Positions 4,585-62,715 of a stretch of 64,000 bases of DNA are shown piece after piece (position 1 is the first letter of the stretch; each line of letters opens with the position of its first letter). The notes under the pieces were generated by a model. The model was not told the DNA's origin. It saw only the letters and a list, made by a program, of their open reading frames with translations, and ran no database searches. The DNA lies in the NCBI RefSeq assembly GCF_036507355.1, contig NZ_AP027877.1, one strand, 5' to 3'. Origin of the DNA: Escherichia coli (lineage in GTDB: Bacteria > Pseudomonadota > Gammaproteobacteria > Enterobacterales > Enterobacteriaceae). The translations under genes were made by a program, and so were the position numbers.

Positions 4585-4893
4585 ATGGATTATTTAATTC
4601 CTGTTTGCCTGGGATTGCTGGGATTGTTCGCGATGCTCGCCCCCAATTGGCTGATGCCTGTTTTAATCGCCGTGGGGGGATGGCTGGGGGTACTTGCCTG
4701 TGGTTGGCTCTGGCTAATGCTATTTTTACCTTTACTCAACGGCGTCGGGCTTGCTTATGCCCTGTGGTTGATGTTCAAAAGGCCATCATTCACGTCCCGC
4801 TTGGTTGCTACATGTTGTGTTATCTCCGTCATTCTGATGTTAGCGCTTTATTATGCTTTCCTGACCATGCCGCCGTTCCCGCCTCAGCACTAA
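4585..4893 (+). CDS. Hypothetical small membrane protein (102 aa)
   Basis: ATG-initiated ORF, strongly hydrophobic with 3 predicted TM helices, CTG-rich codon use; sits between convergent tusA and zntA; no recognised homolog. Confidence 0.35.
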   Translation: MDYLIPVCLGLLGLFAMLAPNWLMPVLIAVGGWLGVLACGWLWLMLFLPLLNGVGLAYALWLMFKRPSFTSRLVATCCVISVILMLALYYAFLTMPPFPPQH

Positions 4894-17933: not shown

Positions 17934-18860
17934 ATGTCTGAGCAGTTTTTATATTTCTTGCAGCAGATGTTTAACGGCGTCACGCTGGGCAGTACCTACG
18001 CGCTGATAGCCATCGGCTACACCATGGTTTACGGCATTATCGGCATGATCAACTTCGCCCACGGCGAGGTTTACATGATCGGCAGCTACGTCTCATTTAT
18101 GATCATCGCCGCACTGATGATGATGGGCATTGATACCGGCTGGCTGCTGGTGGCGGCGGGATTCGTCGGCGCAATCGTCATTGCCAGCGCCTACGGCTGG
18201 AGTATCGAACGGATGGCCTATCGCCCGGTGCGTAACTCCAAGCGCCTGATTGCACTCATCTCGGCAATCGGTATGTCCATCTTCCTGCAAAACTACGTCA
18301 GCCTGACCGAAGGTTCGCGCGACGTGGCGCTGCCGAGCCTGTTTAACGGTCAGTGGGTGGTGGGCCATAGCGAAAACTTCTCTGCCTCTATTACTACCAT
18401 GCAGGCGGTGATCTGGATTGTTACTTTCCTCGCCATGCTGGCGCTGACGATTTTCATTCGCTATTCCCGCATGGGGCGCGCGTGTCGTGCCTGTGCGGAA
18501 GATCTGAAAATGGCGAGCCTGCTTGGCATTAACACTGACCGGGTGATTGCGCTGACCTTTGTGATTGGCGCGGCGATGGCAGCGGTGGCGGGCGTACTGC
18601 TCGGTCAGTTCTACGGCGTCATTAACCCCTATATCGGCTTTATGGCCGGGATGAAAGCCTTTACCGCTGCGGTGCTCGGTGGGATTGGCAGTATTCCGGG
18701 GGCGATGATTGGCGGGCTGATTCTGGGGATTGCGGAGGCGCTCTCTTCTGCCTATCTGAGTACAGAATATAAAGATGTGGTCTCATTTGCCCTGCTGATT
18801 CTGGTGCTGCTGGTGATGCCGACCGGTATTCTGGGTCGCCCGGAGGTAGAGAAAGTATGA
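17934..18860 (+). CDS. livH: Branched-chain amino acid ABC permease LivH (308 aa)
   Basis: 308-aa permease ORF. Confidence 0.95.
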
Positions 18861-20134
18861 AACCGATGCATATTGCAATGGCGTTGCTCTCTGCCGCGAT
18901 GTTCTTTGTCCTGGCAGGCGTTTTTATGGGCGTACAACTGGAGCTGGATGGCACCAAACTGGTGGTCGACACGGCTTCAGACATCCGTTGGCAGTGGGTG
19001 TTTATCGGCACGGCGGTGGTCTTTTTCTTCCAGATTTTGCGACCTGCTTTCCAGAAAGGGCTGAAAAGCGTTTCCGGACCGAAGTTTATTCTGCCCGCGA
19101 TTGATGGCTCCACGGTGAAGCAAAAGCTGTTTCTCGTGGCGCTGCTGGTGCTTGCGGTGGCGTGGCCGTTTATGGTGTCGCGTGGGACGGTGGATATCGC
19201 CACCCTGACCATGATCTACATTATTCTCGGCCTCGGGCTGAACGTGGTTGTTGGTCTTTCTGGTCTGCTGGTGCTGGGGTACGGCGGTTTTTACGCCATC
19301 GGCGCTTACACCTTTGCGCTGCTCAATCACTATTACGGCCTGGGCTTCTGGACCTGTCTGCCGATTGCCGGGTTAATGGCGGCGGCGGCGGGCTTCCTGC
19401 TCGGTTTTCCGGTGCTGCGCCTGCGCGGCGACTATCTGGCGATCGTTACCCTCGGTTTCGGCGAAATTGTGCGCATATTGCTGCTCAATAACACCGAAAT
19501 TACCGGCGGCCCGAATGGTATCAGTCAGATCCCGAAACCGACTTTCTTCGGCCTCGAGTTCAGCCGTACCGCCCGTGAAGGCGGCTGGGACACGTTCAGT
19601 AATTTCTTTGGCCTGAAATACGATCCCTCCGATCGCGTTATCTTCCTCTACCTGGTGGCGTTGCTGCTGGTGGTATTAAGCCTGTTTGTCATTAACCGCC
19701 TGCTGCGGATGCCGCTGGGTCGCGCCTGGGAAGCGTTGCGTGAAGACGAAATCGCCTGCCGTTCGCTGGGCTTAAGCCCGCGTCGTATCAAGCTGACCGC
19801 CTTTACCATCAGCGCCGCGTTTGCGGGTTTTGCCGGAACGCTGTTTGCGGCGCGTCAGGGCTTTGTCAGCCCGGAATCCTTCACCTTTGCTGAATCAGCC
19901 TTTGTACTGGCGATAGTGGTGCTCGGCGGTATGGGCTCGCAATTTGCGGTGATTCTGGCGGCTGTTCTGCTGGTGGTATCGCGCGAGTTGATGCGTGATT
20001 TCAACGAATACAGCATGTTAATGCTCGGTGGTTTGATGGTGCTGATGATGATCTGGCGTCCGCAGGGCTTGCTGCCCATGACGCGCCCGCAACTGAAGCT
20101 GAAAAACGGCGCAGCGAAAGGAGAGCAGGCATGA
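18857..20134 (+). CDS. livM: Branched-chain amino acid ABC permease LivM (425 aa)
   Basis: 425-aa permease; start overlaps the livH stop. Confidence 0.95.
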
Positions 20135-20898
20135 GTCAGCCATTATTATCTGTTAACGGCCTGATGATGCGCTTCGGCGGCCTGCTGGCGGTGAACAACG
20201 TCAATCTCGAACTGTACCCGCAGGAGATCGTCTCGTTAATCGGCCCTAACGGCGCCGGAAAAACCACGGTCTTTAACTGCCTGACCGGTTTCTACAAACC
20301 CACCGGCGGAACCATTTTACTGCGCGATCAGCATCTGGAAGGTTTGCCGGGGCAGCAAATTGCTCGCATGGGCGTGGTGCGTACCTTCCAGCATGTGCGT
20401 CTGTTCCGCGAAATGACGGTGATTGAAAACCTGCTGGTGGCGCAGCATCAGCAACTGAAAACCGGGCTGTTCTCTGGCCTGTTGAAAACGCCTTCTTTCC
20501 GTCGCGCCCAGAGCGAAGCGCTCGACCGTGCCGCCACCTGGCTTGAGCGCATTGGTTTGCTGGAACACGCCAACCGTCAGGCGAGTAACCTGGCCTACGG
20601 TGACCAGCGCCGTCTGGAGATCGCCCGCTGCATGGTTACGCAGCCGGAGATTTTAATGCTCGACGAACCTGCGGCAGGTCTTAACCCGAAAGAAACGAAA
20701 GAGCTGGATGAGCTGATTGCCGAACTGCGCAATCATCACAACACCACTATCTTGTTGATTGAACACGATATGAAGCTGGTGATGGGAATTTCGGACCGAA
20801 TTTACGTGGTCAATCAGGGGACGCCGCTGGCAAACGGTACGCCGGAGCAGATCCGTAATAACCCGGACGTGATCCGTGCCTATTTAGGTGAGGCATAA
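20131..20898 (+). CDS. livG: Branched-chain amino acid ABC ATPase LivG (255 aa)
   Basis: Walker [10 protein letters not shown]. Confidence 0.95.
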
Positions 20899-20899
20899 G

Positions 20900-21613
20900 A
20901 TGGAAAAAGTCATGTTGTCCTTTGACAAAGTCAGCGCCCACTACGGCAAAATCCAGGCGCTGCATGAGGTGAGCCTGCATATCAATCAGGGCGAGATTGT
21001 CACGCTGATTGGCGCGAACGGGGCGGGGAAAACCACCTTGCTTGGCACATTATGCGGCGATCCACGCGCCACCAGCGGGCGAATTGTGTTTGATGATAAA
21101 GACATTACCGACTGGCAGACGGCGAAAATCATGCGCGAAGCGGTAGCGATTGTCCCGGAAGGGCGTCGCGTCTTCTCGCGGATGACGGTGGAAGAGAACC
21201 TGGCGATGGGCGGCTTCTTTGCCGAACGCGACCAGTTCCAGGAGCGCATAAAGTGGGTGTATGAACTGTTCCCGCGTCTGCATGAGCGCCGTGTTCAGCG
21301 GGCAGGCACCATGTCCGGCGGTGAACAGCAGATGCTGGCGATTGGTCGCGCGCTGATGAGCAACCCGCGTTTGTTGTTGCTTGATGAGCCATCGCTCGGT
21401 CTTGCGCCGATTATCATCCAGCAAATTTTCGACACCATCGAGCAGCTGCGCGAGCAGGGGATGACTATCTTCCTCGTCGAGCAGAACGCCAACCAGGCGC
21501 TAAAGCTGGCGGATCGCGGCTACGTGCTGGAAAACGGTCATGTGGTGCTCTCCGATACTGGTGATGCACTACTGGCGAACGAAGCGGTGAGAAGTGCGTA
21601 TTTAGGCGGGTAA
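20900..21613 (+). CDS. livF: Branched-chain amino acid ABC ATPase LivF (237 aa)
   Basis: ORF 20888..21613 trimmed to MEKVMLSFDKV; Walker A GANGAGKTT. Confidence 0.93.
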   Translation: MEKVMLSFDKVSAHYGKIQALHEVSLHINQGEIVTLIGANGAGKTTLLGTLCGDPRATSGRIVFDDKDITDWQTAKIMREAVAIVPEGRRVFSRMTVEENLAMGGFFAERDQFQERIKWVYELFPRLHERRVQRAGTMSGGEQQMLAIGRALMSNPRLLLLDEPSLGLAPIIIQQIFDTIEQLREQGMTIFLVEQNANQALKLADRGYVLENGHVVLSDTGDALLANEAVRSAYLGG

Positions 21614-28339: not shown

Positions 28340-30085
28340 ATGATAAAACCGACGTTTTTACGCCGGGTGGCCATTGCTGCTCTGTTCACAGGAAGTTGTT
28401 TTAGTACGGTAGCCGCGCCACCTGCGCCGTCTCCTGTTTCTTACGGCGTGGAGGAAGATGTCTTTCATCCGGTACGCGCGAAACAGGGGATGGTGGCGTC
28501 TGTCGATGCTACTGCCACTCAGGTGGGGGTGGATATCCTCAAGGAGGGCGGGAATGCCGTTGATGCCGCCGTGGCTGTGGGCTACGCGCTGGCGGTAACG
28601 CATCCGCAGGCAGGGAATCTGGGCGGTGGTGGTTTTATGCTGATCCGCTCGAAAAATGGCAATACCACCGCTATCGATTTCCGCGAAATGGCACCCGCCA
28701 AAGCGACCCGCGATATGTTCCTTGATGACCAGGGCAACCCGGACAGCAAAAAATCACTCACTTCGCATCTGGCTTCCGGCACGCCCGGTACGGTCGCTGG
28801 TTTCTCGCTGGCGTTGGATAAATACGGCACAATGCCGTTGAACAAAGTGGTGCAGCCAGCGTTTAAACTGGCACGCGATGGTTTTATCGTTAACGACGCA
28901 CTGGCTGACGATCTCAAAACCTACGGGAGCGAAGTGCTGCCGAATCACGAAAACAGCAAGGCTATCTTCTGGAAAGAGGGCGAGCCGCTGAAAAAGGGCG
29001 ACAAGCTGGTGCAGGCGAACCTGGCAAAGAGCCTGGAGATGATTGCCGAAAACGGCCCGGACGAATTCTACAAAGGCACGATAGCGGAACAGATTGCCCA
29101 GGAGATGCAGAAAAACGGTGGCCTGATCACTAAAGAAGATTTAGCGGCGTATAAAGCGGTCGAACGCACACCGATAAGCGGCGATTATCGCGGGTATCAG
29201 GTTTACTCCATGCCACCGCCATCCTCCGGCGGGATCCATATCGTACAAATCCTCAATATTCTGGAAAACTTCGATATGAAGAAATACGGTTTTGGCAGCG
29301 CCGACGCGATGCAGATCATGGCAGAAGCGGAGAAATATGCCTACGCTGACCGCTCGGAATATCTTGGCGACCCGGATTTTGTGAAAGTCCCGTGGCAGGC
29401 GCTGACCAATAAAGCCTATGCCAAATCTATTGCGGAGCAAATCGATATCAATAAAGCGAAACCGTCCAGCGAGATTCGCCCTGGCAAGCTTGCGCCTTAT
29501 GAGAGTAATCAAACTACCCATTACTCAGTGGTGGATAAAGACGGTAACGCCGTGGCGGTGACCTATACGCTGAACACCACCTTCGGTACGGGTATTGTCG
29601 CGGGCGAGAGCGGTATTCTGCTTAATAACCAGATGGATGATTTCTCCGCCAAACCGGGCGTACCGAACGTTTACGGGCTGGTGGGCGGTGATGCCAACGC
29701 GGTCGGGCCGAATAAACGCCCACTGTCGTCGATGTCACCAACCATTGTGGTGAAAGACGGTAAAACCTGGCTGGTTACCGGTAGCCCTGGCGGGAGTCGG
29801 ATTATTACCACCGTGCTGCAAATAGTGGTGAATAGCATCGATTATGGCATGAACGTCGCCGAAGCGACCAATGCGCCGCGTTTCCACCATCAGTGGTTGC
29901 CGGACGAGCTGCGTGTCGAAAAAGGGTTTAGCCCGGATACGCTCAAGCTGCTGGAAGCAAAAGGTCAGAAAGTGGCGCTGAAAGAGGCGATGGGCAGTAC
30001 ACAAAGCATTATGGTTGGGCCGGACGGTGAGTTGTACGGCGCATCCGACCCGCGCTCGGTGGATGATTTAACGGCGGGGTACTAA
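28340..30085 (+). CDS. ggt: Gamma-glutamyltranspeptidase Ggt
   Basis: ORF 28313..30085 trimmed to MIKPTFLRRVAIAALF; catalytic TTHYSVVD region present. Confidence 0.95.
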   Translation: MIKPTFLRRVAIAALFTGSCFSTVAAPPAPSPVSYGVEEDVFHPVRAKQGMVASVDATATQVGVDILKEGGNAVDAAVAVGYALAVTHPQAGNLGGGGFMLIRSKNGNTTAIDFREMAPAKATRDMFLDDQGNPDSKKSLTSHLASGTPGTVAGFSLALDKYGTMPLNKVVQPAFKLARDGFIVNDALADDLKTYGSEVLPNHENSKAIFWKEGEPLKKGDKLVQANLAKSLEMIAENGPDEFYKGTIAEQIAQEMQKNGGLITKEDLAAYKAVERTPISGDYRGYQVYSMPPPSSGGIHIVQILNILENFDMKKYGFGSADAMQIMAEAEKYAYADRSEYLGDPDFVKVPWQALTNKAYAKSIAEQIDINKAKPSSEIRPGKLAPYESNQTTHYSVVDKDGNAVAVTYTLNTTFGTGIVAGESGILLNNQMDDFSAKPGVPNVYGLVGGDANAVGPNKRPLSSMSPTIVVKDGKTWLVTGSPGGSRIITTVLQIVVNSIDYGMNVAEATNAPRFHHQWLPDELRVEKGFSPDTLKLLEAKGQKVALKEAMGSTQSIMVGPDGELYGASDPRSVDDLTAGY

Positions 30086-30093
30086 GGTTAGCG

Positions 30094-30124
30094 GCCCTCT
30101 TCGTGGGAAGAGGGCTATTTTGTC
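30094..30124. terminator. Bidirectional rho-independent terminator between ggt and yrhB
   Basis: Hairpin gccctcttc-gtgg-gaagagggc flanked by T/A tracts. Confidence 0.75.
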
Positions 30125-30407
30125 AGGGCAAGCCGAAGGTAGCCTTTTTTATTTCGTAATCCTGTAGATATTCTTCCAGCGGCTTTGCCGTTCCCAGAGA
30201 ATGAATTTCACCACTGTCTTTATCAATAATAAAAGGTGCGTTACCAGCTAAGCGCGCGGCCTCATCTCCAGTTTCGAGAAATTCTCGTGCTTCGAAACAG
30301 AAATACCAGCCCTGGCTAAAGCGTCCATGTAGAGTAATGACGACCGGGAGATCTGCATCATCAAGGTAATGGTTCGCTTTCGCGAATGCGTCGTGATAAG
30401 TAATTAT
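30123..30407 (-). CDS. yrhB: YrhB homolog (93 codons read from sequence); expected initiator position is ATA, not ATG
   Basis: Minus-strand translation ITYHDAFAKANHYLDDADLPVVITLHGRFSQGWYFCFEAREFLETGDEAARLAGNAPFIIDKDSGEIHSLGTAKPLEEYLQDYEIKKATFGLP; not in the ORF track because there is no ATG/GTG/TTG before the upstream in-frame stop. Confidence 0.55.
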   Translation of the reverse strand: MITYHDAFAKANHYLDDADLPVVITLHGRFSQGWYFCFEAREFLETGDEAARLAGNAPFIIDKDSGEIHSLGTAKPLEEYLQDYEIKKATFGLP

Positions 30408-30604
30408 AATTATAATAAATATTATTGTTGAGTGTTATATTATTATTCCTGTGTGATACATTGAGCAAAGGCGCGTTCATCTTCGTCAAAGATATTATTA
30501 AATGCTGGTTTTGAAAAAAGTTCATCGGATAAGATATAGTCACGAAATAAGTATCTGCTAATATTTTGTGATTTTTTTCAGAACGTCGAACGGGATTTTC
30601 TTAT

Positions 30605-30769
30605 TTAAGATATCAGAATCTTATGATTCGGGTAAAATTCTAAATAAATCAACATGTCACTAAAATCATCATAGCCATTAGCTATTTCGGCTAAAATAGA
30701 GACTACATGTCTTCGGTCCATCTCACTTAAGGAGTGTAGTTCCGTTGTAAGTTTTTCCATAGCTTGCAT
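30605..30769 (-). CDS. Possible small ORF (54 aa)
   Basis: ATG..TAA ORF read by hand: MQAMEKLTTELHSLSEMDRRHVVSILAEIANGYDDFSDMLIYLEFYPNHKILIS; AT-rich; below the track length cutoff. Confidence 0.25.
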   Translation of the reverse strand: MQAMEKLTTELHSLSEMDRRHVVSILAEIANGYDDFSDMLIYLEFYPNHKILIS

Positions 30770-30854: not shown

Positions 30855-31349
30855 TTATGAACAACTGTCCATGATTTCGTTTAAGAATGAAGAGAAATCA
30901 CTAAACGAACTGAATATATTTTCTGTGCCAATATTATCTCTAATTTCAAAAAAGTTACTTTTAATGTCATAAGTAAATATTGAAATGCTATCATCCCCGA
31001 TCACTAACCGTTCTTGTAGATCAGGGTTTATGAAATCATCATTATTTCTATAAAATTCATTTACGGCAAAAAGGTTTTTAACTGAAGGTTCTGGAATCGA
31101 GAGGCTAAATAATCGTAATCCATTAACTTCGAATCCATCCATTGCTCTTAAAAAAGTAAGATAATCAGGTTGATTCTTAAAAAGAATACTAACTTCATTA
31201 CATAACTTCTCCAGGCAATTAGTTGAATTAGAATTAAATTCTATTTGGATTATACTTTCAATAAATGATTCCTTGAGCGGTGCTTCAAATGGATAGTCTA
31301 AATCATTCATCATTTTTATTAATTTGTTTATTTGGGTTTTAGTCATCAT
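30855..31349 (-). CDS. Putative immunity protein (YrhA-like), translationally coupled to the upstream Hcp-HNH gene (164 aa)
   Basis: Start ATG overlaps the stop of the HNH reading frame (ATGA); AT-rich, acidic small protein typical of immunity genes. Confidence 0.6.
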   Translation of the reverse strand: MMTKTQINKLIKMMNDLDYPFEAPLKESFIESIIQIEFNSNSTNCLEKLCNEVSILFKNQPDYLTFLRAMDGFEVNGLRLFSLSIPEPSVKNLFAVNEFYRNNDDFINPDLQERLVIGDDSISIFTYDIKSNFFEIRDNIGTENIFSSFSDFSSFLNEIMDSCS

Positions 31350-32524
31350 TTTGTGGGTTCCATAATATTTTTCATGGGAGGATAAATTGAGCCAGATGGA
31401 ATGGCCCAGGGAGTGATTTTACTTTCACCTACTAATATTCCCTTAGCTATTCGTGATTGCATGTTAGTAAAAACTTTATGATATGGTTCGTTTTCGATTA
31501 ATACTAAATTTTCGAAATCATTAGTACCACCATCATCTAGAGATAGTTTATGGTGAACATTATAATTTAGAGGAACATAGCCCTTTCTCATTCTTAAAAG
31601 GTCTTCGGCGTTGAATCTTCCAGATGCTTCGGAGGTTTTTGCAAGTTTGATAAGAAAATTTTTTCTTACAGTTTTGTTAAACTCCTTTCGTAAGTTAGCT
31701 AAGTCTTTTGAAGGTCTCTTAATGTATATTATTTATATTATGTCTATGCCATCAAGAAGTTTTTGTTGACCTCTAAGTTTGCCTAAGTAACTATTTATTT
31801 CTGTATATGTATCAACTCTAGAACGCTTTGTTAAAAGAATAGATGCTGTTGCTATCGCTATGCCCGCTGTTTTTTCATTTAGTATTTGATCATAGCCTTT
31901 GATTGCATCTCCACCCAGTTTTTCCGCAGTATCTCTGAATCCTTCAATGTTCCCATTGTATACGCCACCAGCAGCAAGTAGCCTGCCAACAGCTTTGCTG
32001 TTTAACGTTTTGAAACGATTATTTGTTTGGTTTTTTGAATTTGGTAAAAACAAACGGTTATAATTTTCAGGGAGTGCCAAATAGCTGAACTCGGTATTTG
32101 CGATAAGATGTTGACAGAGGATAAATTCATAACTAACAGTTATTGTTTCTGTATCCAGTTGATTTTCAATGATCTGATGATGAATAGCCGATAAAAAAGC
32201 GCCTCTTAGTTGTATATAATAATACTTTTCCCATCTGCCAAATCTATTGATTCTATAAAAGTCAAATCCCATAAATAATTGCTCATTATTGTTAATGGAA
32301 TTAATAAGTAATGGAGTGCTTTTATCAATTAATTTACAAAATGTTATACCCTGTAACTGTGAACCAAGCCCCGTATTAGTAATGCTATTTGCGAGTGAGA
32401 ATGTAAATATTTCATTCTCATGCCCGCTCTGCCAGCGATTACCTATAGATTCAGTAGTCCCACAACCTGCGGAGATGCTTCCTTGTTGTTCTCCCGTTAC
32501 TGTCAGGTAAACAATATTACTCAT
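31346..32524 (-). pseudogene. yhhZ: Hcp-domain protein with C-terminal HNH nuclease (YhhZ-like Hcp-ET toxin), interrupted by an in-frame TAA
   Basis: ORFs 31733..32524 (263 aa, Hcp-like N-terminus) and 31346..31591 (HNH motif NYNVHHKLSLDDGGTNDFENLVLIENEPYH) are in the same frame, separated by one TAA at 31733..31735; the full span is 393 codons. Confidence 0.7.
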
Positions 32525-33370: not shown

Positions 33371-33466
33371 GCGATCAGGAAGACCCTCGCGGAGAACCTG
33401 AAAGCACGACATTGCTCACATTGCTTCCAGTATTACTTAGCCAGCCGGGTGCTGGCTTTTTTTTTT
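33371..33466 (+). ncRNA. ryhB: RyhB iron-responsive small RNA
   Basis: gcgatcaggaagaccctcgcggagaacctgaaagcacgacattgctcacattgcttccag...gccagccgggtgctggc plus T-tract terminator, matching my memory of RyhB; in the yhhY-yhhX spacer. Confidence 0.9.
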
Positions 33467-43071: not shown

Positions 43072-45041
43072 CACAACTCGCCATTGGCAAACCCACTCCC
43101 CTCGGCGCGCATTACGACGGTCAGGGCGTCAACTTCACACTTTTCTCCGCTCATGCCGAGCGGGTAGAGCTGTGTGTCTTTGACGCCAATGGCCAGGAAC
43201 ATCGCTATGACTTGCCAGGGCACAGTGGCGACATTTGGCACGGTTATCTGCCGGATGCGCGCCCGGGTTTGCGTTATGGTTATCGCGTTCATGGCCCCTG
43301 GCAACCCGCCGAGGGGCATCGCTTTAACCCGGCGAAGTTGTTGATTGATCCTTGCGCGCGGCAAATTGACGGGGAATTTAAAGATAACCCGCTGCTGCAC
43401 GCCGGTCATAATGAACCTGACTATCGCGACAACGCCGCCATTGCGCCGAAATGCGTAGTGGTGGTTGATCACTATGACTGGGAAGATGATGCTCCGCCGC
43501 GCACGCCGTGGGGCAGCACCATCATTTATGAAGCCCATGTCAAAGGATTAACGTACCTGCACCCGGAGATCCCGGTCGAGATCCGTGGCACTTATAAAGC
43601 CCTCGGGCATCCAGTGATGATCAACTATTTGAAACAGTTGGGCATTACCGCGCTGGAACTGCTGCCGGTGGCGCAGTTTGCCAGTGAACCACGTCTGCAA
43701 CGCATGGGACTAAGTAACTACTGGGGTTACAACCCGGTGGCGATGTTTGCGCTGCATCCGGCGTATGCCTGCTCGCCAGAAACGGCGCTGGATGAGTTTC
43801 GCGATGCAATCAAAGCACTGCATAAAGCGGGTATCGAAGTCATTCTTGATATCGTGCTCAACCATAGTGCGGAACTGGACCTCGACGGCCCGTTATTCTC
43901 GCTGCGTGGGATCGACAACCGTAGCTATTATTGGATAAGAGAAGACGGCGATTATCACAACTGGACCGGTTGTGGCAACACGCTCAATTTGAGTCACCCG
44001 GCGGTGGTGGATTATGCCAGCGCCTGCCTGCGTTATTGGGTAGAAACCTGCCACGTCGATGGTTTCCGCTTTGATCTGGCGGCAGTCATGGGCCGTACGC
44101 CAGAGTTCCGTCAGGATGCGCCGTTGTTTACCGCTATCCAGAACTGCCCGGTGCTCTCGCAGGTGAAGTTAATTGCTGAACCGTGGGATATCGCTCCTGG
44201 TGGTTATCAGGTGGGAAATTTCCCGCCGCTGTTTGCCGAGTGGAACGATCATTTCCGCGATGCTGCCCGTCGTTTCTGGCTGCATTATGATTTGCCTCTG
44301 GGGGCGTTTGCCGGGCGTTTTGCTGCCTCCAGCGATGTTTTTAAACGTAATGGTCGTCTGCCGAGTGCCGCGATTAATCTCGTCACCGCGCATGACGGTT
44401 TTACGCTTCGCGACTGCGTTTGTTTCAACCATAAACACAATGAAGCAAACGGAGAAGAAAATCGCGACGGGACCAACAACAATTACAGTAACAATCATGG
44501 TAAAGAAGGGTTAGGCGGTTCTCTTGACCTGGTTGAACGGCGGCGCGACAGCATTCATGCCCTGTTAACAACGTTGTTGCTCTCCCAGGGTACGCCGATG
44601 TTACTGGCCGGTGACGAACATGGTCACAGCCAGCATGGCAATAACAATGCCTACTGTCAGGATAACCAATTAACCTGGTTGGACTGGTCGCAGGCAAGCA
44701 GTGGTTTAACCGCATTTACCGCCGCGTTAATCCATCTGCGCAAGCGTATTCCCGCTTTGGTGGAGAATCGCTGGTGGGAAGAAGGCGACGGCAATGTCCG
44801 TTGGCTAAATCGATATGCTCAACCCTTAAGCACGGATGAGTGGCAAAACGGGCCGAAACAGCTGCAAATTCTGCTCTCGGATCGCTTTTTGATCGCAATT
44901 AACGCCACGCTTGAGGTAACAGAGATTGTTTTACCTGCTGGGGAGTGGCACGCCATTCCCCCATTCGCTGGAGAGGATAACCCAGTGATTACGGCTGTCT
45001 GGCAGGGACCTGCACACGGATTGTGTGTGTTCCAGAGATGA
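43068..45041 (+). CDS. glgX: Glycogen debranching enzyme GlgX (657 aa)
   Basis: 657 aa; overlaps the glgB stop. Confidence 0.97.
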
Positions 45042-47787: not shown

Positions 47788-50253
<2,466 letters not shown>

Positions 50254-50369: not shown

Positions 50370-51887
50370 ATGGAAAGAATAATGCAAAACAGAAAATGGA
50401 TTTTGTCCTCGCTGGTAATGACTTTTTTCGGCATCCCCATACTGACGCAATTTTTGGCGGCGGTTGTTGCTATGCTGGGTGTCGGACTTGCCGGTATTAT
50501 TGAAGTTTGTAATATCCTTATCACGCCAACAATTTACCTTCTGCTCAACATTTTTATGCTGGCGCTGGGCGCATTAATGCTATTTTTCTCGGGGCGAGTA
50601 TGGGCAGGCGATAGTGCACCAGAAAAAAGAGAAATAGCCGTCTGGCGGCAATGCTTTTTTCTCTTACCCGCGCTATTAACCCTGGTTGGCTGGATAATCA
50701 CGCTACATCTGGCAGATTATCAATTTCGCCAGATGGGAGCTGGTTGGTTGGCAAACCTTATGCTTCCCTGGTTGGGCGTTTTTTTAGTCTCATTAGTGGG
50801 TGGTGAGTACTGGTGGATGGTCATTATTCCCGTTGGGGCGCATATCAGTTTTTCGCTGGGATACGCCTGGCCGACCAGATATCCTTTATCCGGCACGTCC
50901 GGACTACGTTGCCGTAACTTACTCCTGTTTCTACTTCTCTTACTTGGTATTGTCGCCGGGTATCAGGCCCATTTATATAAGCAGCAAAATCCTGGTGTCG
51001 GTGTACGCGAAAATATTGATATCTGGGCCTGGCGACCCGATAAACTCAATAATCGACTGACGCCGCTGCGTGGCAAACCGCAAATTCAGTTTAGGCAAAA
51101 CTGGCCGCGAATCGATGGCGCCACGGCTGCGTACCCAATTTATGCTTCTGCATTTTATGCATTAAGCGTAATACCAGAGGATTTTCACGTTTGGGATTAT
51201 CTGGAAAACTCTCGTACGCCAGAAGCATATAACAAAATCGTTAAGGGCGATGCTGATATTATTTTCGTGGCGCAACCTTCTGGTGGGCAAAAAAAACGTG
51301 CAAAGGAATCTGGTGTCACTTTGCTGTACACCCCCTTTGCCCGTGAAGCATTCGTTTTCATCGTCAATGCGGATAATCCGGTTAATTCCCTGACTGAACA
51401 ACAGGTGCGTGACATTTTCAGTGGTGCAATTACCAATTGGCGTACTGTTGGCGGTAACGATCAGGAGATCCAGACCTGGCAGCGCCCGGAAGACTCTGGC
51501 AGCCAGACAGTGATGCAATCACAGGTCATGAAAAATGTCCGCATGATCTCGCCGCAGGAAACGGAAGTGGCAAGCGTGATGGAGGGAATGATTAAAGTCG
51601 TTGCCGAATACCGTAATACAAACAACGCAATAGGCTATACCTTCCGCTATTACGCGACGCAAATGAATGCTGATAAAAATATAAAATTGCTAGCGATTAA
51701 CGATATTACACCGACGGCGGAAAACATTCGCAACGGCAAATATGCGTACATCGTCGATGCATTTATGGTAACGAGGGAAAATACGACGTCAGAGACACAA
51801 AAATTGGTGGAATGGTTTTTAACGCCGCAGGGGCAGAGTTTGGTGGAAGATGTGGGATATGTGCCGATGTATCCAACAATGGAATAA
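50370..51887 (+). CDS. Polytopic membrane domain fused to a PstS-like (PBP_like_2) substrate-binding domain (505 aa)
   Basis: About 200 aa with ~6 hydrophobic helices, then GATAAYPIYASAFYAL...SGSQTVM...IGYTFRYYA, which resembles PstS motifs. Confidence 0.7.
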   Translation: MERIMQNRKWILSSLVMTFFGIPILTQFLAAVVAMLGVGLAGIIEVCNILITPTIYLLLNIFMLALGALMLFFSGRVWAGDSAPEKREIAVWRQCFFLLPALLTLVGWIITLHLADYQFRQMGAGWLANLMLPWLGVFLVSLVGGEYWWMVIIPVGAHISFSLGYAWPTRYPLSGTSGLRCRNLLLFLLLLLGIVAGYQAHLYKQQNPGVGVRENIDIWAWRPDKLNNRLTPLRGKPQIQFRQNWPRIDGATAAYPIYASAFYALSVIPEDFHVWDYLENSRTPEAYNKIVKGDADIIFVAQPSGGQKKRAKESGVTLLYTPFAREAFVFIVNADNPVNSLTEQQVRDIFSGAITNWRTVGGNDQEIQTWQRPEDSGSQTVMQSQVMKNVRMISPQETEVASVMEGMIKVVAEYRNTNNAIGYTFRYYATQMNADKNIKLLAINDITPTAENIRNGKYAYIVDAFMVTRENTTSETQKLVEWFLTPQGQSLVEDVGYVPMYPTME

Positions 51888-52905
51888 CGCTCGAGAGAAA
51901 GGAATCAGCGAGACGAATAAATTCACCGGTGTTTTACTATTAGGCACGGCGTTACTGGCGGGATGTGTCGACCGGGAAGGGTACTATAACAGCGTCAGGG
52001 AAGAAGAGAGCCATGGACTGACGTCTCTGCGGGGGCAACCTGCATTACGTTACAGCGATGATTGGTCAAGATGGCCGAGAGTGTACGGCGCTACAGCCTT
52101 ATACCCGCTGTATGCCTCCGCGTATTATAAATTAGTACCCGAGCCAAAAGATAAGGATCGAACCTCGCTGGCCTGGCAGGCGTATGGTTTGCAGCAAACC
52201 CGAACAGCTGAAGCCTACGATAGTCTGATTAAAGGTTCCGCGACGGTTATTTTTGTTGCACAACCGTCGGAAGGACAGAAAAAACGTGCAGAAGAAGCGG
52301 GTGTTAAACTGAAATATACCGCTTTCGCCCGCGAAGCCTTTGTCTTTATCGTTGATATTAATAACCCGGTAAATTCTCTCTCTGAGCACCAGGTTAAAGA
52401 TATTTTTAGCGGCAAAACTAGCCGCTGGAATAAAGTAGGTGGTAGTGACGAACATATAAAAGTCTGGCAGCGCCCTGAAGATTCTGGAAGCCAAACGATT
52501 ATGAAGGGGTTGGTTATGCAAGACACCCCAATGCTGCCAGCTAAAAAATCCACTGTGATTGATCTTATGGGCGGTTTAATTACTGAAGTTGCCGACTATC
52601 AAAACACGCCATCTTCCATTGGGTACACCTTCCACTATTACGTCACTCGTATGAATGACAATATGCTCAAAATGCGCAAGCAGATTAAACTTTTGGCTAT
52701 AAATGGCGTTGCGCCTACCGAGGAAAATATCCGCAACGGCACTTATCCATACATTGTGGATGCCTATATGGTGACGCGTGAAAATCCCACGCCGGAAACG
52801 CAGAAATTTGTTGACTGGTTTATAAGTCAGCAGGGGCAACAGTTGGTAGAGGATGTGGGGTATGTGCCGCTGTATGAAGCATCCCCCGAATCATCAGGAC
52901 AATAA
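51850..52905 (+). CDS. PstS-like substrate-binding lipoprotein, paralog of the upstream gene's C-terminal domain (351 aa; start uncertain)
   Basis: Lipobox LLAGC; domain collinear with the 505-aa protein; start overlaps the upstream gene by 38 nt. Confidence 0.7.
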   Translation: MWDMCRCIQQWNNAREKGISETNKFTGVLLLGTALLAGCVDREGYYNSVREEESHGLTSLRGQPALRYSDDWSRWPRVYGATALYPLYASAYYKLVPEPKDKDRTSLAWQAYGLQQTRTAEAYDSLIKGSATVIFVAQPSEGQKKRAEEAGVKLKYTAFAREAFVFIVDINNPVNSLSEHQVKDIFSGKTSRWNKVGGSDEHIKVWQRPEDSGSQTIMKGLVMQDTPMLPAKKSTVIDLMGGLITEVADYQNTPSSIGYTFHYYVTRMNDNMLKMRKQIKLLAINGVAPTEENIRNGTYPYIVDAYMVTRENPTPETQKFVDWFISQQGQQLVEDVGYVPLYEASPESSGQ

Positions 52906-53442
52906 TGATGAATATAATCAGACTTTATATTTATCCGTTATTTCTCGGCTTTGTTATTGTGCCGTTGTTGGTGTGGCCGATGGTGGTTGCGCTGGCTGCT
53001 TGTATTATCACGCTGAGTTTTCTGGGGGAAATGCTGTTCTCAATCCCGCTCATGATCAGGCGTATTTCACTTCTGCAATTACAACTTTGGTTATCGGCTG
53101 AATATGCGCTTTTCTTCTGTGTAATGTGTTGCGTTGGTTGGCAATTTACTCGTAGAACTCAATCTGAATTGAAAAGCAGGCTCCATTGTTGGTTGGTATT
53201 CGCACCGGTCTATTTATGGTTGATCCTCTGGAATATCATTTTTTACATCGCGCCAGCGAAAATTGCGTTGCTGGAAAGTATCCGCAATTTCTTTCTGCTT
53301 GTTGTCTGGCTACCCCTGAATTTTTCGCCATTTTGGCCTCAGCCGTGGACGGATTTTATCGGTCCAATAAGCGCACAGTGAGGTAGCCTGAGTTTAACGG
53401 ACACTCCTTCCTGAAATAGAATGGCATCAGAAGGAGCTAATA

Positions 53443-53780: not shown

Positions 53781-54599
53781 ATGTGTCAGGTATTTGGTGT
53801 ATCCAGGAGCGGTTATTACAACTGGGTACAGCATGAACCCTCAGACAGAAAACAAAGTGATGAGCGGCTAAAACTGGAGATTAAGGTGGCACATATCCGC
53901 ACTCGCGAAACATATGGAACCCGGCGGCTCCAGACGGAGCTGGCAGAGAATGGCATCATCGTTGGTCGTGACCGACTGGCACGTCTTCGTAAGGAGCTAA
54001 GGCTACGCTGTAAGCAGAAACGCAAGTTCAGAGCGACTACGAACTCGAACCACAATCTGCCAGTTGCGCCAAATCTGCTGAACCAGACGTTCGCTCCTAC
54101 AGCACCAAATCAGGTCTGGGTGGCGGACCTGACGTATGTTGCCACACAGGAGGGATGGTTGTACCTCGCTGGCATCAAAGATGTTTATACGTGCGAAATT
54201 GTCGGCTACGCCATGGGAGAGCGCATGACAAAAGAGCTGACAGGTAAAGCCCTGTTTATGGCGCTCAGGAGCCAGCGCCCACCTGCCGGGCTAATCCACC
54301 ACTCTGATCGAGGTTCACAGTACTGCGCATACGATTACCGGGTCATACAGGAGCAGTTTGGTCTGAAAACATCAATGTCGCGTAAAGGTAACTGTTACGA
54401 CAACGCTCCGATGGAAAGCTTCTGGGGAACGCTGAAAAATGAGAGCCTGAGCCACTATCGTTTTAATAACCGGGATGAAGCCATCTCAGTAATACGGGAA
54501 TACATTGAGATTTTCTACAATCGTCAGCGTCGTCACTCTCGTCTGGGGAATATCTCCCCGGCAGCCTTCAGGGAAAAATATCATCAGATGGCTGCTTAA
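53781..54599 (+). CDS. IS3-family transposase OrfB (DDE integrase core); the true N-terminus is probably fused to OrfA by frameshifting
   Basis: 272-aa ORF with an rve-type integrase core. Confidence 0.85.
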   Translation: MCQVFGVSRSGYYNWVQHEPSDRKQSDERLKLEIKVAHIRTRETYGTRRLQTELAENGIIVGRDRLARLRKELRLRCKQKRKFRATTNSNHNLPVAPNLLNQTFAPTAPNQVWVADLTYVATQEGWLYLAGIKDVYTCEIVGYAMGERMTKELTGKALFMALRSQRPPAGLIHHSDRGSQYCAYDYRVIQEQFGLKTSMSRKGNCYDNAPMESFWGTLKNESLSHYRFNNRDEAISVIREYIEIFYNRQRRHSRLGNISPAAFREKYHQMAA

Positions 54600-61653: not shown

Positions 61654-62673
<1,020 letters not shown>

Positions 62674-62715
62674 TATAAAGATGTAAGCCGGATCCAATGC
62701 ATTATCCGGCTAAAC

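Follow-up and report, generated by a model that had tools for sequence, protein, structure and literature searches.

The yrhB start codon reads ATA in one Escherichia coli genome: a probable null or strongly reduced-expression allele of recent origin

In the Escherichia coli chromosome analysed here, the yrhB homologue carries ATA at the position where its initiator ATG is expected. Most likely this allele arose recently, from a strain-private G:C>A:T transition under relaxed selection, and either is null or gives strongly reduced expression; in other words, it is a nascent pseudogene. The window (the whole 64,000-nucleotide stretch of DNA that was analysed) covers the yhhT-zntA-ftsYEX-rpoH-liv-ugp-ggt-yrhB-...-glg-glpD-rtc region. 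The lesion itself is described by four features:

30123..30407, minus strand: yrhB homologue, 94 codons plus stop, with ATA at codon 1 and otherwise intact
30405, minus strand: mutated base at the third position of the initiator, A (T on the plus strand) versus G (C on the plus strand) in relatives
30401..30416, minus strand: AT-rich hexamer tract ATTATA-ATTATA-ATTA, which spans the yrhB start codon (direct reading and alignment)
30435..30437, minus strand: in-frame upstream TAA, which bars any N-terminal extension of yrhB

Direct reading of the minus-strand frame gives TAA CAC TCA ACA ATA ATA TTT ATT ATA ATT ATA (30407..30405) ATT ACT TAT CAC GAC ... TTG CCC TGA, with the stop TGA at 30125..30123. 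The translation runs stop-HSTIIFIIII-ITYHDAFAKANHYLDD...FGLP-stop. The ATA at the expected initiator, first reported in a sequence-only reading of this DNA, was borne out by the direct reading, by the translation and by the alignment with K-12 MG1655 and strain GZ2408C. Both of these strains have ATG at the position of the ATA, and ATG>ATA is the sole difference at the start. The lesion is thus a single G>A transition at 30405 (C>T on the plus strand). The same reading had stated that no ATG, GTG or TTG start lies upstream in frame before the TAA, and the translation agrees. Its description of the upstream in-frame codons as ATT and ATA only was inexact, since CAC, TCA, ACA and TTT are also found there, none of them a canonical start. 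Between the TAA and the stop, the only canonical codon in the yrhB frame is the penultimate TTG (Leu93). An alternative in-frame start was therefore rejected, there being none upstream before the TAA nor downstream before codon 93. By the in-frame scan, the locus is not a coding gene with a canonical start, as no usable ATG, GTG or TTG was found near the conserved YrhB N-terminus. The yrhB frame is also missing from the mechanical ORF list of the window; a gene finder limited to ATG, GTG and TTG starts cannot call it because codon 1 is ATA.

Apart from the initiator, the yrhB CDS of the window is identical to that of GZ2408C, and from codon 2 onward it is 100% identical to that of PapM-32-1, the closest complete genome to the window. 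An ORF without further damage after the ATA is what a very recent event should leave, but continued low-level use would account for it equally well. The G>A change completes the second hexamer unit of the tract, which reads ATTATA-ATTATA-ATTA here versus ATTATA-ATTATG-ATTA in relatives. As a separate observation, the change turns TATGAT into the consensus -10 hexamer TATAAT, located 17 nt downstream of TCAACA (30403..30431, minus strand), resulting in a slightly better promoter-like site. The promoter scan returned 4 sites versus 3.5 expected, which is not above chance.

The homologue is orthologous to yrhB of K-12: it has the same flanking genes (ggt, yrhD and yrhA) and a near-identical sequence. 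K-12 yrhB (b3446; WP_000634159.1, 'YrhB family protein') resembles the window gene in its location between ggt and yrhD, in its Imm35 domain and in its CCC-TGA ending. Residues 2-94 are identical and only one synonymous difference separates the two, but codon 1 is ATG in K-12 and ATA in the window. Judging from the aligned homologues, the annotated yrhB start is correct. The K-12 Met1 aligns with the N-terminal Met of homologues from Escherichia, Citrobacter, Erwinia, Limnobaculum, Pectobacterium, Yersinia, Pantoea, Enterobacter and Serratia, and a conserved [IV]-[TSN]-[YF] motif directly follows Met1 in the aligned homologues. In K-12 yrhB, too, this upstream TAA is present and other starts are lacking, leaving the ATG as its sole option. 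A mis-annotated K-12 start was considered and rejected, Met1 being conserved across genera. The sequence-only reading had allowed that YrhB might start elsewhere than it assumed; its assumed start held, as Met1 is aligned across the enterobacterial genera and K-12 has no other in-frame start.

The frequency of the allele was determined with a 55-nt probe centred on the codon, designed such that the 28-nt megablast seed must cover the variant base. With ATA, the probe matched none of the 5,426 complete E. coli genomes. The control probe of the same length with ATG found matches in 3,809 of them. Low-complexity masking is not behind the negative result, because the same probe with ATG does match these genomes. 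The reference gene might itself have started with ATA or ATT, as the sequence-only reading had conceded; K-12 was found to have ATG, and the complete genomes divide into 3,809 with ATG and 0 with ATA. The same picture was obtained in metagenomes, where a 40-mer with ATA matched no contig and the ATG 40-mer matched 52. In the GTDB representative genomes neither the ATA 40-mer nor a shared 29-mer was matched, the shared sequence itself being missing from that collection.

The closest relatives were reached by exact-protein look-ups with proteins specific to the lineage, namely the truncated TssD and the strain's Ggt. Two clone-mate assemblies bear on the age of the allele. In GCA_016660925.1 (L021), 7,450 nt are identical to the window with base 30405 (G, hence ATG) as the sole exception, and in Logan SRR32181686 (L008) the same holds over 5,059 nt, again with G (ATG) at 30405 as the sole exception. 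A 94-aa Imm35 gene is called in both. SRR17480487, ERR3330519 and GCA_905398585.1 are further relatives belonging to this clone. Over the approximately 45 kb that are covered by clone-mates, there are only four window-derived differences: 4801, 30405, 43613 and 45835. The changes at 43613 (glgX Pro182) and 45835 (glgC Phe259) are synonymous, and the one at 4801 lies between tusA and zntA. Position 49855 (GlgP Tyr684) was dropped as a window singleton, since its allele is common in other lineages. By these comparisons, the ATA is one among a handful of very recent strain-specific changes and is private to one genome; the other window-specific changes look like ordinary strain divergence. A 2-bp deletion (AG, minus strand) at about 30573..30575, in the yrhD-yrhB intergenic region, is seen relative to K-12 and PapM-32-1. 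It is common to the clone-mates and as such a lineage marker.

All four window-derived changes are G:C>A:T transitions, a sample too small for any conclusion and compatible with deamination-type mutation or with template damage. Spontaneous mutation in E. coli commonly produces such transitions. The main rival explanation arises here, according to which the true genome has ATG and the A at 30405 stems from a base-call error in the consensus, from misassembly or from a minority variant that entered the assembly. A single-base singleton that occurs in no other sequence searched would fit such an error, and cytosine-deamination damage of the template can give a pattern in which all four differences are G:C>A:T, as can mutation. 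Substitution errors, however, are rare in a finished consensus and the site is no homopolymer. Moreover, the other differences have a density of about 1 per 11 kb, and synonymous third positions account for two of the three, a picture that resembles true strain divergence. An error at this base is therefore regarded as unlikely, though it is the alternative to be taken most seriously.

With the start codon lost, the expected output depends on the leader, which has the following coordinates:

30408..30450, minus strand: yrhB 5' leader, without Shine-Dalgarno sequence and predicted to be unstructured

There is no Shine-Dalgarno sequence because the 35 nt before the start codon do not contain any G; the nearest AGGA lies about 40 nt upstream (direct reading). 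The predicted folding energies are -3.8 kcal/mol with ATA and -4.7 kcal/mol with ATG, and neither differs from shuffled sequences. Both leaders are predicted to be unstructured, and the mutation would therefore act through codon-anticodon pairing only. No overlap with an Rfam family was found for yrhB or its leader. In E. coli, AUA belongs to the top four near-cognate initiators; on a strong T7 plasmid construct its initiation reaches 1-2% of that at AUG, and in lower-expression constructs the near-cognates including AUA reach 0.02-3% of AUG (Hecht et al., bioRxiv 10.1101/063800). By extrapolation from these reporter data, which also set the size of the expected loss, YrhB would be present at trace level at best in the window strain, because AUA initiates weakly and no Shine-Dalgarno sequence is available to help.

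Natural non-canonical starts do exist in E. coli, as in the AUU of infC and the AUU of pcnB. The ATA of yrhB is similar in that a near-cognate AUN stands at the initiator, where discrimination by IF3 is expected. The starts of infC and pcnB are conserved across species, however, and that of infC is tied to autoregulation, whereas the yrhB ATA is private and the homologues examined all have Met. By its distribution (0 versus 3,809 complete genomes, ATG in the clone-mates, 0 versus 52 metagenome contigs) the allele does not belong with conserved non-AUG initiators of the infC kind. It could still be proposed that the ATA is a meaningful initiator, from which YrhB is synthesized at a low and IF3-sensitive level as with the infC AUU. 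The place of AUA among the best near-cognates, the otherwise undamaged ORF and the AU-rich, unstructured leader would agree with this proposal. It is opposed by the absence of the allele from every relative, the near-identical clone-mates included, which leaves no evolutionary persistence. Nor is there a compensating Shine-Dalgarno sequence, so that the output is expected to be at most 3% of AUG, and the gene is dispensable in a decaying islet. Such use of the ATA is accordingly held to be very improbable. Slightly less credence still is given to its most specific form, a newly arisen natural AUA-initiated gene whose low, IF3-sensitive YrhB level has biological meaning while the other members of the clone still use AUG.

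A further route to YrhB involves an ORF that crosses the start codon:

30361..30543, minus strand: unannotated 60-codon ORF with GTG start (30543), in the +1 frame relative to yrhB and overlapping the yrhB start

YrhB proteins with an N-terminal extension, 118 and 125 aa long (P0001 and P0003), occur in some public isolates. There, the overlapping ORF appears to have been joined to yrhB by the loss of 1 nt from the AT tract, and the tract appears to be indel-prone. The sequence-only reading had suggested that the tract could be prone to slippage. This stands for the other isolates, where the proteins P0001 and P0003 point to 1-nt indels, but does not apply to the yrhB lesion. Slippage in (ATTATA)n was rejected as its cause, since the length of the tract is the same in K-12, GZ2408C and the clone-mates and only a substitution has taken place. 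The overlapping ORF (GTG 30543..30361) also raises the idea that YrhB might be rescued as a fusion, by ribosomes that shift frame on the A/U-rich tract. The ORF does cross the yrhB start in the adjacent frame, and the natural indel variants do fuse it to YrhB. These fused variants come from DNA indels and not from recoding, however; the ORF is unannotated in any reference and contains no recognised frameshift signal. Rescue by frameshifting is considered the most improbable of the explanations and hardly to be expected.

The reading of the ATA as a recent null or reduced-expression allele is in line with the genetic surroundings of yrhB, which forms the end of a T6SS toxin/immunity islet in the order tssD-yrhA-yrhD-yrhB:

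31346..32524, minus strand: tssD (Hcp with an HNH-like C-terminus), with an in-frame TAA; TIGR03344 on the N-terminal 263 aa
30855..31349, minus strand: yrhA, intact, 164 aa; NCBIfam NF038335, E=1.5e-36; 100% identical to PapM-32-1
30605..30760, minus strand: yrhD, an intact 51-aa ORF, annotated as yrhD in relatives
30093..30116, no strand assigned: GC-rich hairpin between the convergent ggt and yrhB, probably a shared terminator
28340..30085, plus strand: ggt; yrhB lies between ggt and yrhD

The nonsense codon of tssD is a TAA at codon 264 (31735..31733, minus strand). It precedes the HNH part, which is lost; the C-terminal fragment gives a weak HNH match. The same nonsense allele was found in the complete genomes A30 (baboon) and GPT24-02, where NCBI annotates a pseudogene ('internal stop') and yrhB is intact with ATG. 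The tssD toxin was lost before the yrhB start because these two genomes carry the nonsense allele together with an ATG yrhB. The combination of Hcp with an HNH-like C-terminus is the architecture of the Hcp-ET1 effectors (reviewed in PMC6730261). The islet shares with them the Hcp-HNH-like tssD and the small gene (yrhA) directly after it, as in effector-immunity pairs. It differs in that the tssD of the window has a nonsense codon before the HNH part and in that yrhB belongs to Imm35, a family not linked to HNH. Because yrhA comes immediately after the toxin gene, it is presumed to be the cognate immunity gene of the Hcp-HNH toxin. IS1 is found within yrhA in K-12 and between yrhD and yrhB in GZ2408C.

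YrhB matches the Pfam family Imm35 (PF15567) with E=4e-23 and 81.8 bits (cut-off 27.5), over profile positions 1-85 of 85. It has no solved structure and no NCBIfam model match. Imm35 has been tied to Tox-PL1 and Ntox40 toxins, not to HNH, and is a predicted peptidase inhibitor (Zhang et al., PMC3482391). The only experimental report on YrhB, as cited in PMC10723866, is that of a chaperone-like activity (Ahn et al. 2012). No Tox-PL1 or Ntox40 toxin gene was found beside yrhB in the islet. YrhB looks like an orphan immunity-type gene product at most, because no matching toxin gene adjoins yrhB; the immunity role is a prediction from Pfam and comparative genomics. About 30% of the complete E. 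coli genomes lack yrhB (3,809 of 5,426 match), and the gene is dispensable in nature.

The other genes of the window place the yrhB lesion in perspective. Sixty reference genes were checked, of which 57 are present and 53 of these are intact. The four that are present but not intact are yrhB (start lost), tssD (nonsense), a truncated hypothetical gene (52905..53381) and rtcA (3' divergence). None of the other 58 reference genes checked is without a usable start. A window-wide excess of start-codon lesions was rejected, as two further changes at start codons are both explained. The pstS1-like gene (50379, ATG>ATA) has an ATG at the next codon and another 9 nt upstream. The pstS2-like gene (51913..51915, plus strand), the second of the PstS family within the glgP-glpD insert, has ACG versus ATG in the reference, an allele in common with GCA_905398585.1; the upstream in-frame TAG of the reference is TGG here, and gene callers extend the ORF to the ATG at 51850 (351 aa versus 330 aa). 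This extension places 21 residues before the hydrophobic N-terminus, a putative signal peptide. The ACG allele had no match in the complete E. coli genomes (55-nt probe).

Several further observations concern the remainder of the window. Downstream of the PstS-like genes, the hypothetical membrane protein at 52905..53381 (plus strand) has 158 aa versus 200 aa in PapM-32-1. The truncated gene is adjoined by an IS3-family transposase ORF (53781..54599, plus strand, 272 aa), with rve domains on the matching contig L015, and the contigs of several draft assemblies end at the IS3-family element or the truncated gene. The RyhB sRNA (33400..33464, plus strand; RF00057, 83 bits, E=2e-15) lies between yhhY and yhhX, where it is expected in this species. 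Between livH and livF (17934..21613) the identity to the otherwise closest complete genome is 94.7-96.8%, versus about 99% elsewhere, which suggests that this segment was recombined from another E. coli lineage. For rtcA (61657..62685, plus strand), the PapM-32-1 gene is matched over nt 1-1006 of 1029 only, and a forced full-length projection runs into an internal stop and lacks the terminal one. The window ORF at 61654..62673 (339 aa) is near the 338-aa form of rtcA in other assemblies, and the GNAT and DUF1778 genes that follow rtcA in the reference are absent from the window. The rtcA of the window probably has a different natural 3' end rather than damage, and is read so because these two downstream reference genes are absent.

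Taken together, the favoured course of events begins with the strain-private G:C>A:T transition at 30405, which turned the yrhB initiator ATG into ATA. With no canonical start in frame and no Shine-Dalgarno sequence, the synthesis of YrhB would then drop to about 0.02-3% of normal. With the toxin gene already dead and about 30% of E. coli naturally without yrhB, the loss is best accounted for by mutation under relaxed selection rather than by an adaptive change to non-canonical initiation. The substitution, its restriction to this genome, the conserved Met1, the lack of other starts and the decayed surroundings were observed; how much expression is lost, the role as an orphan immunity gene and the relaxed selection are those parts of the scheme that we infer. 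The two outcomes that the sequence-only reading had put forward, a start-codon-loss pseudogene or non-canonical initiation, were the right pair to consider; the ATG in near-identical clone-mates marks a very recent loss and favours the pseudogene or reduced-expression side. The locus resembles start-codon-loss pseudogenes as a general class in its initiator point mutation, the lack of an alternative start, the dispensable gene and the presence of a pseudogene (tssD) alongside. It differs from them in that the event is extremely young, is absent from the clone-mates and shows no secondary decay of the ORF.

For annotation, the locus should be recorded as a yrhB pseudogene (start codon lost), and not be skipped or given an invented start. 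Beyond annotation the importance of the finding is small. It represents ordinary gene decay and no novel mode of translation initiation. It does provide a clean case of the recency of a lesion, with one base in more than 7 kb separating the strain from its clone-mates. Together with its ATG clone-mates, the strain offers a natural, matched comparison of AUA initiation on a native leader that has no Shine-Dalgarno sequence. The allele is also consistent with an orphan T6SS toxin/immunity islet that is decaying piece by piece, in which the toxin went first and the nearby orphan immunity-type gene followed.
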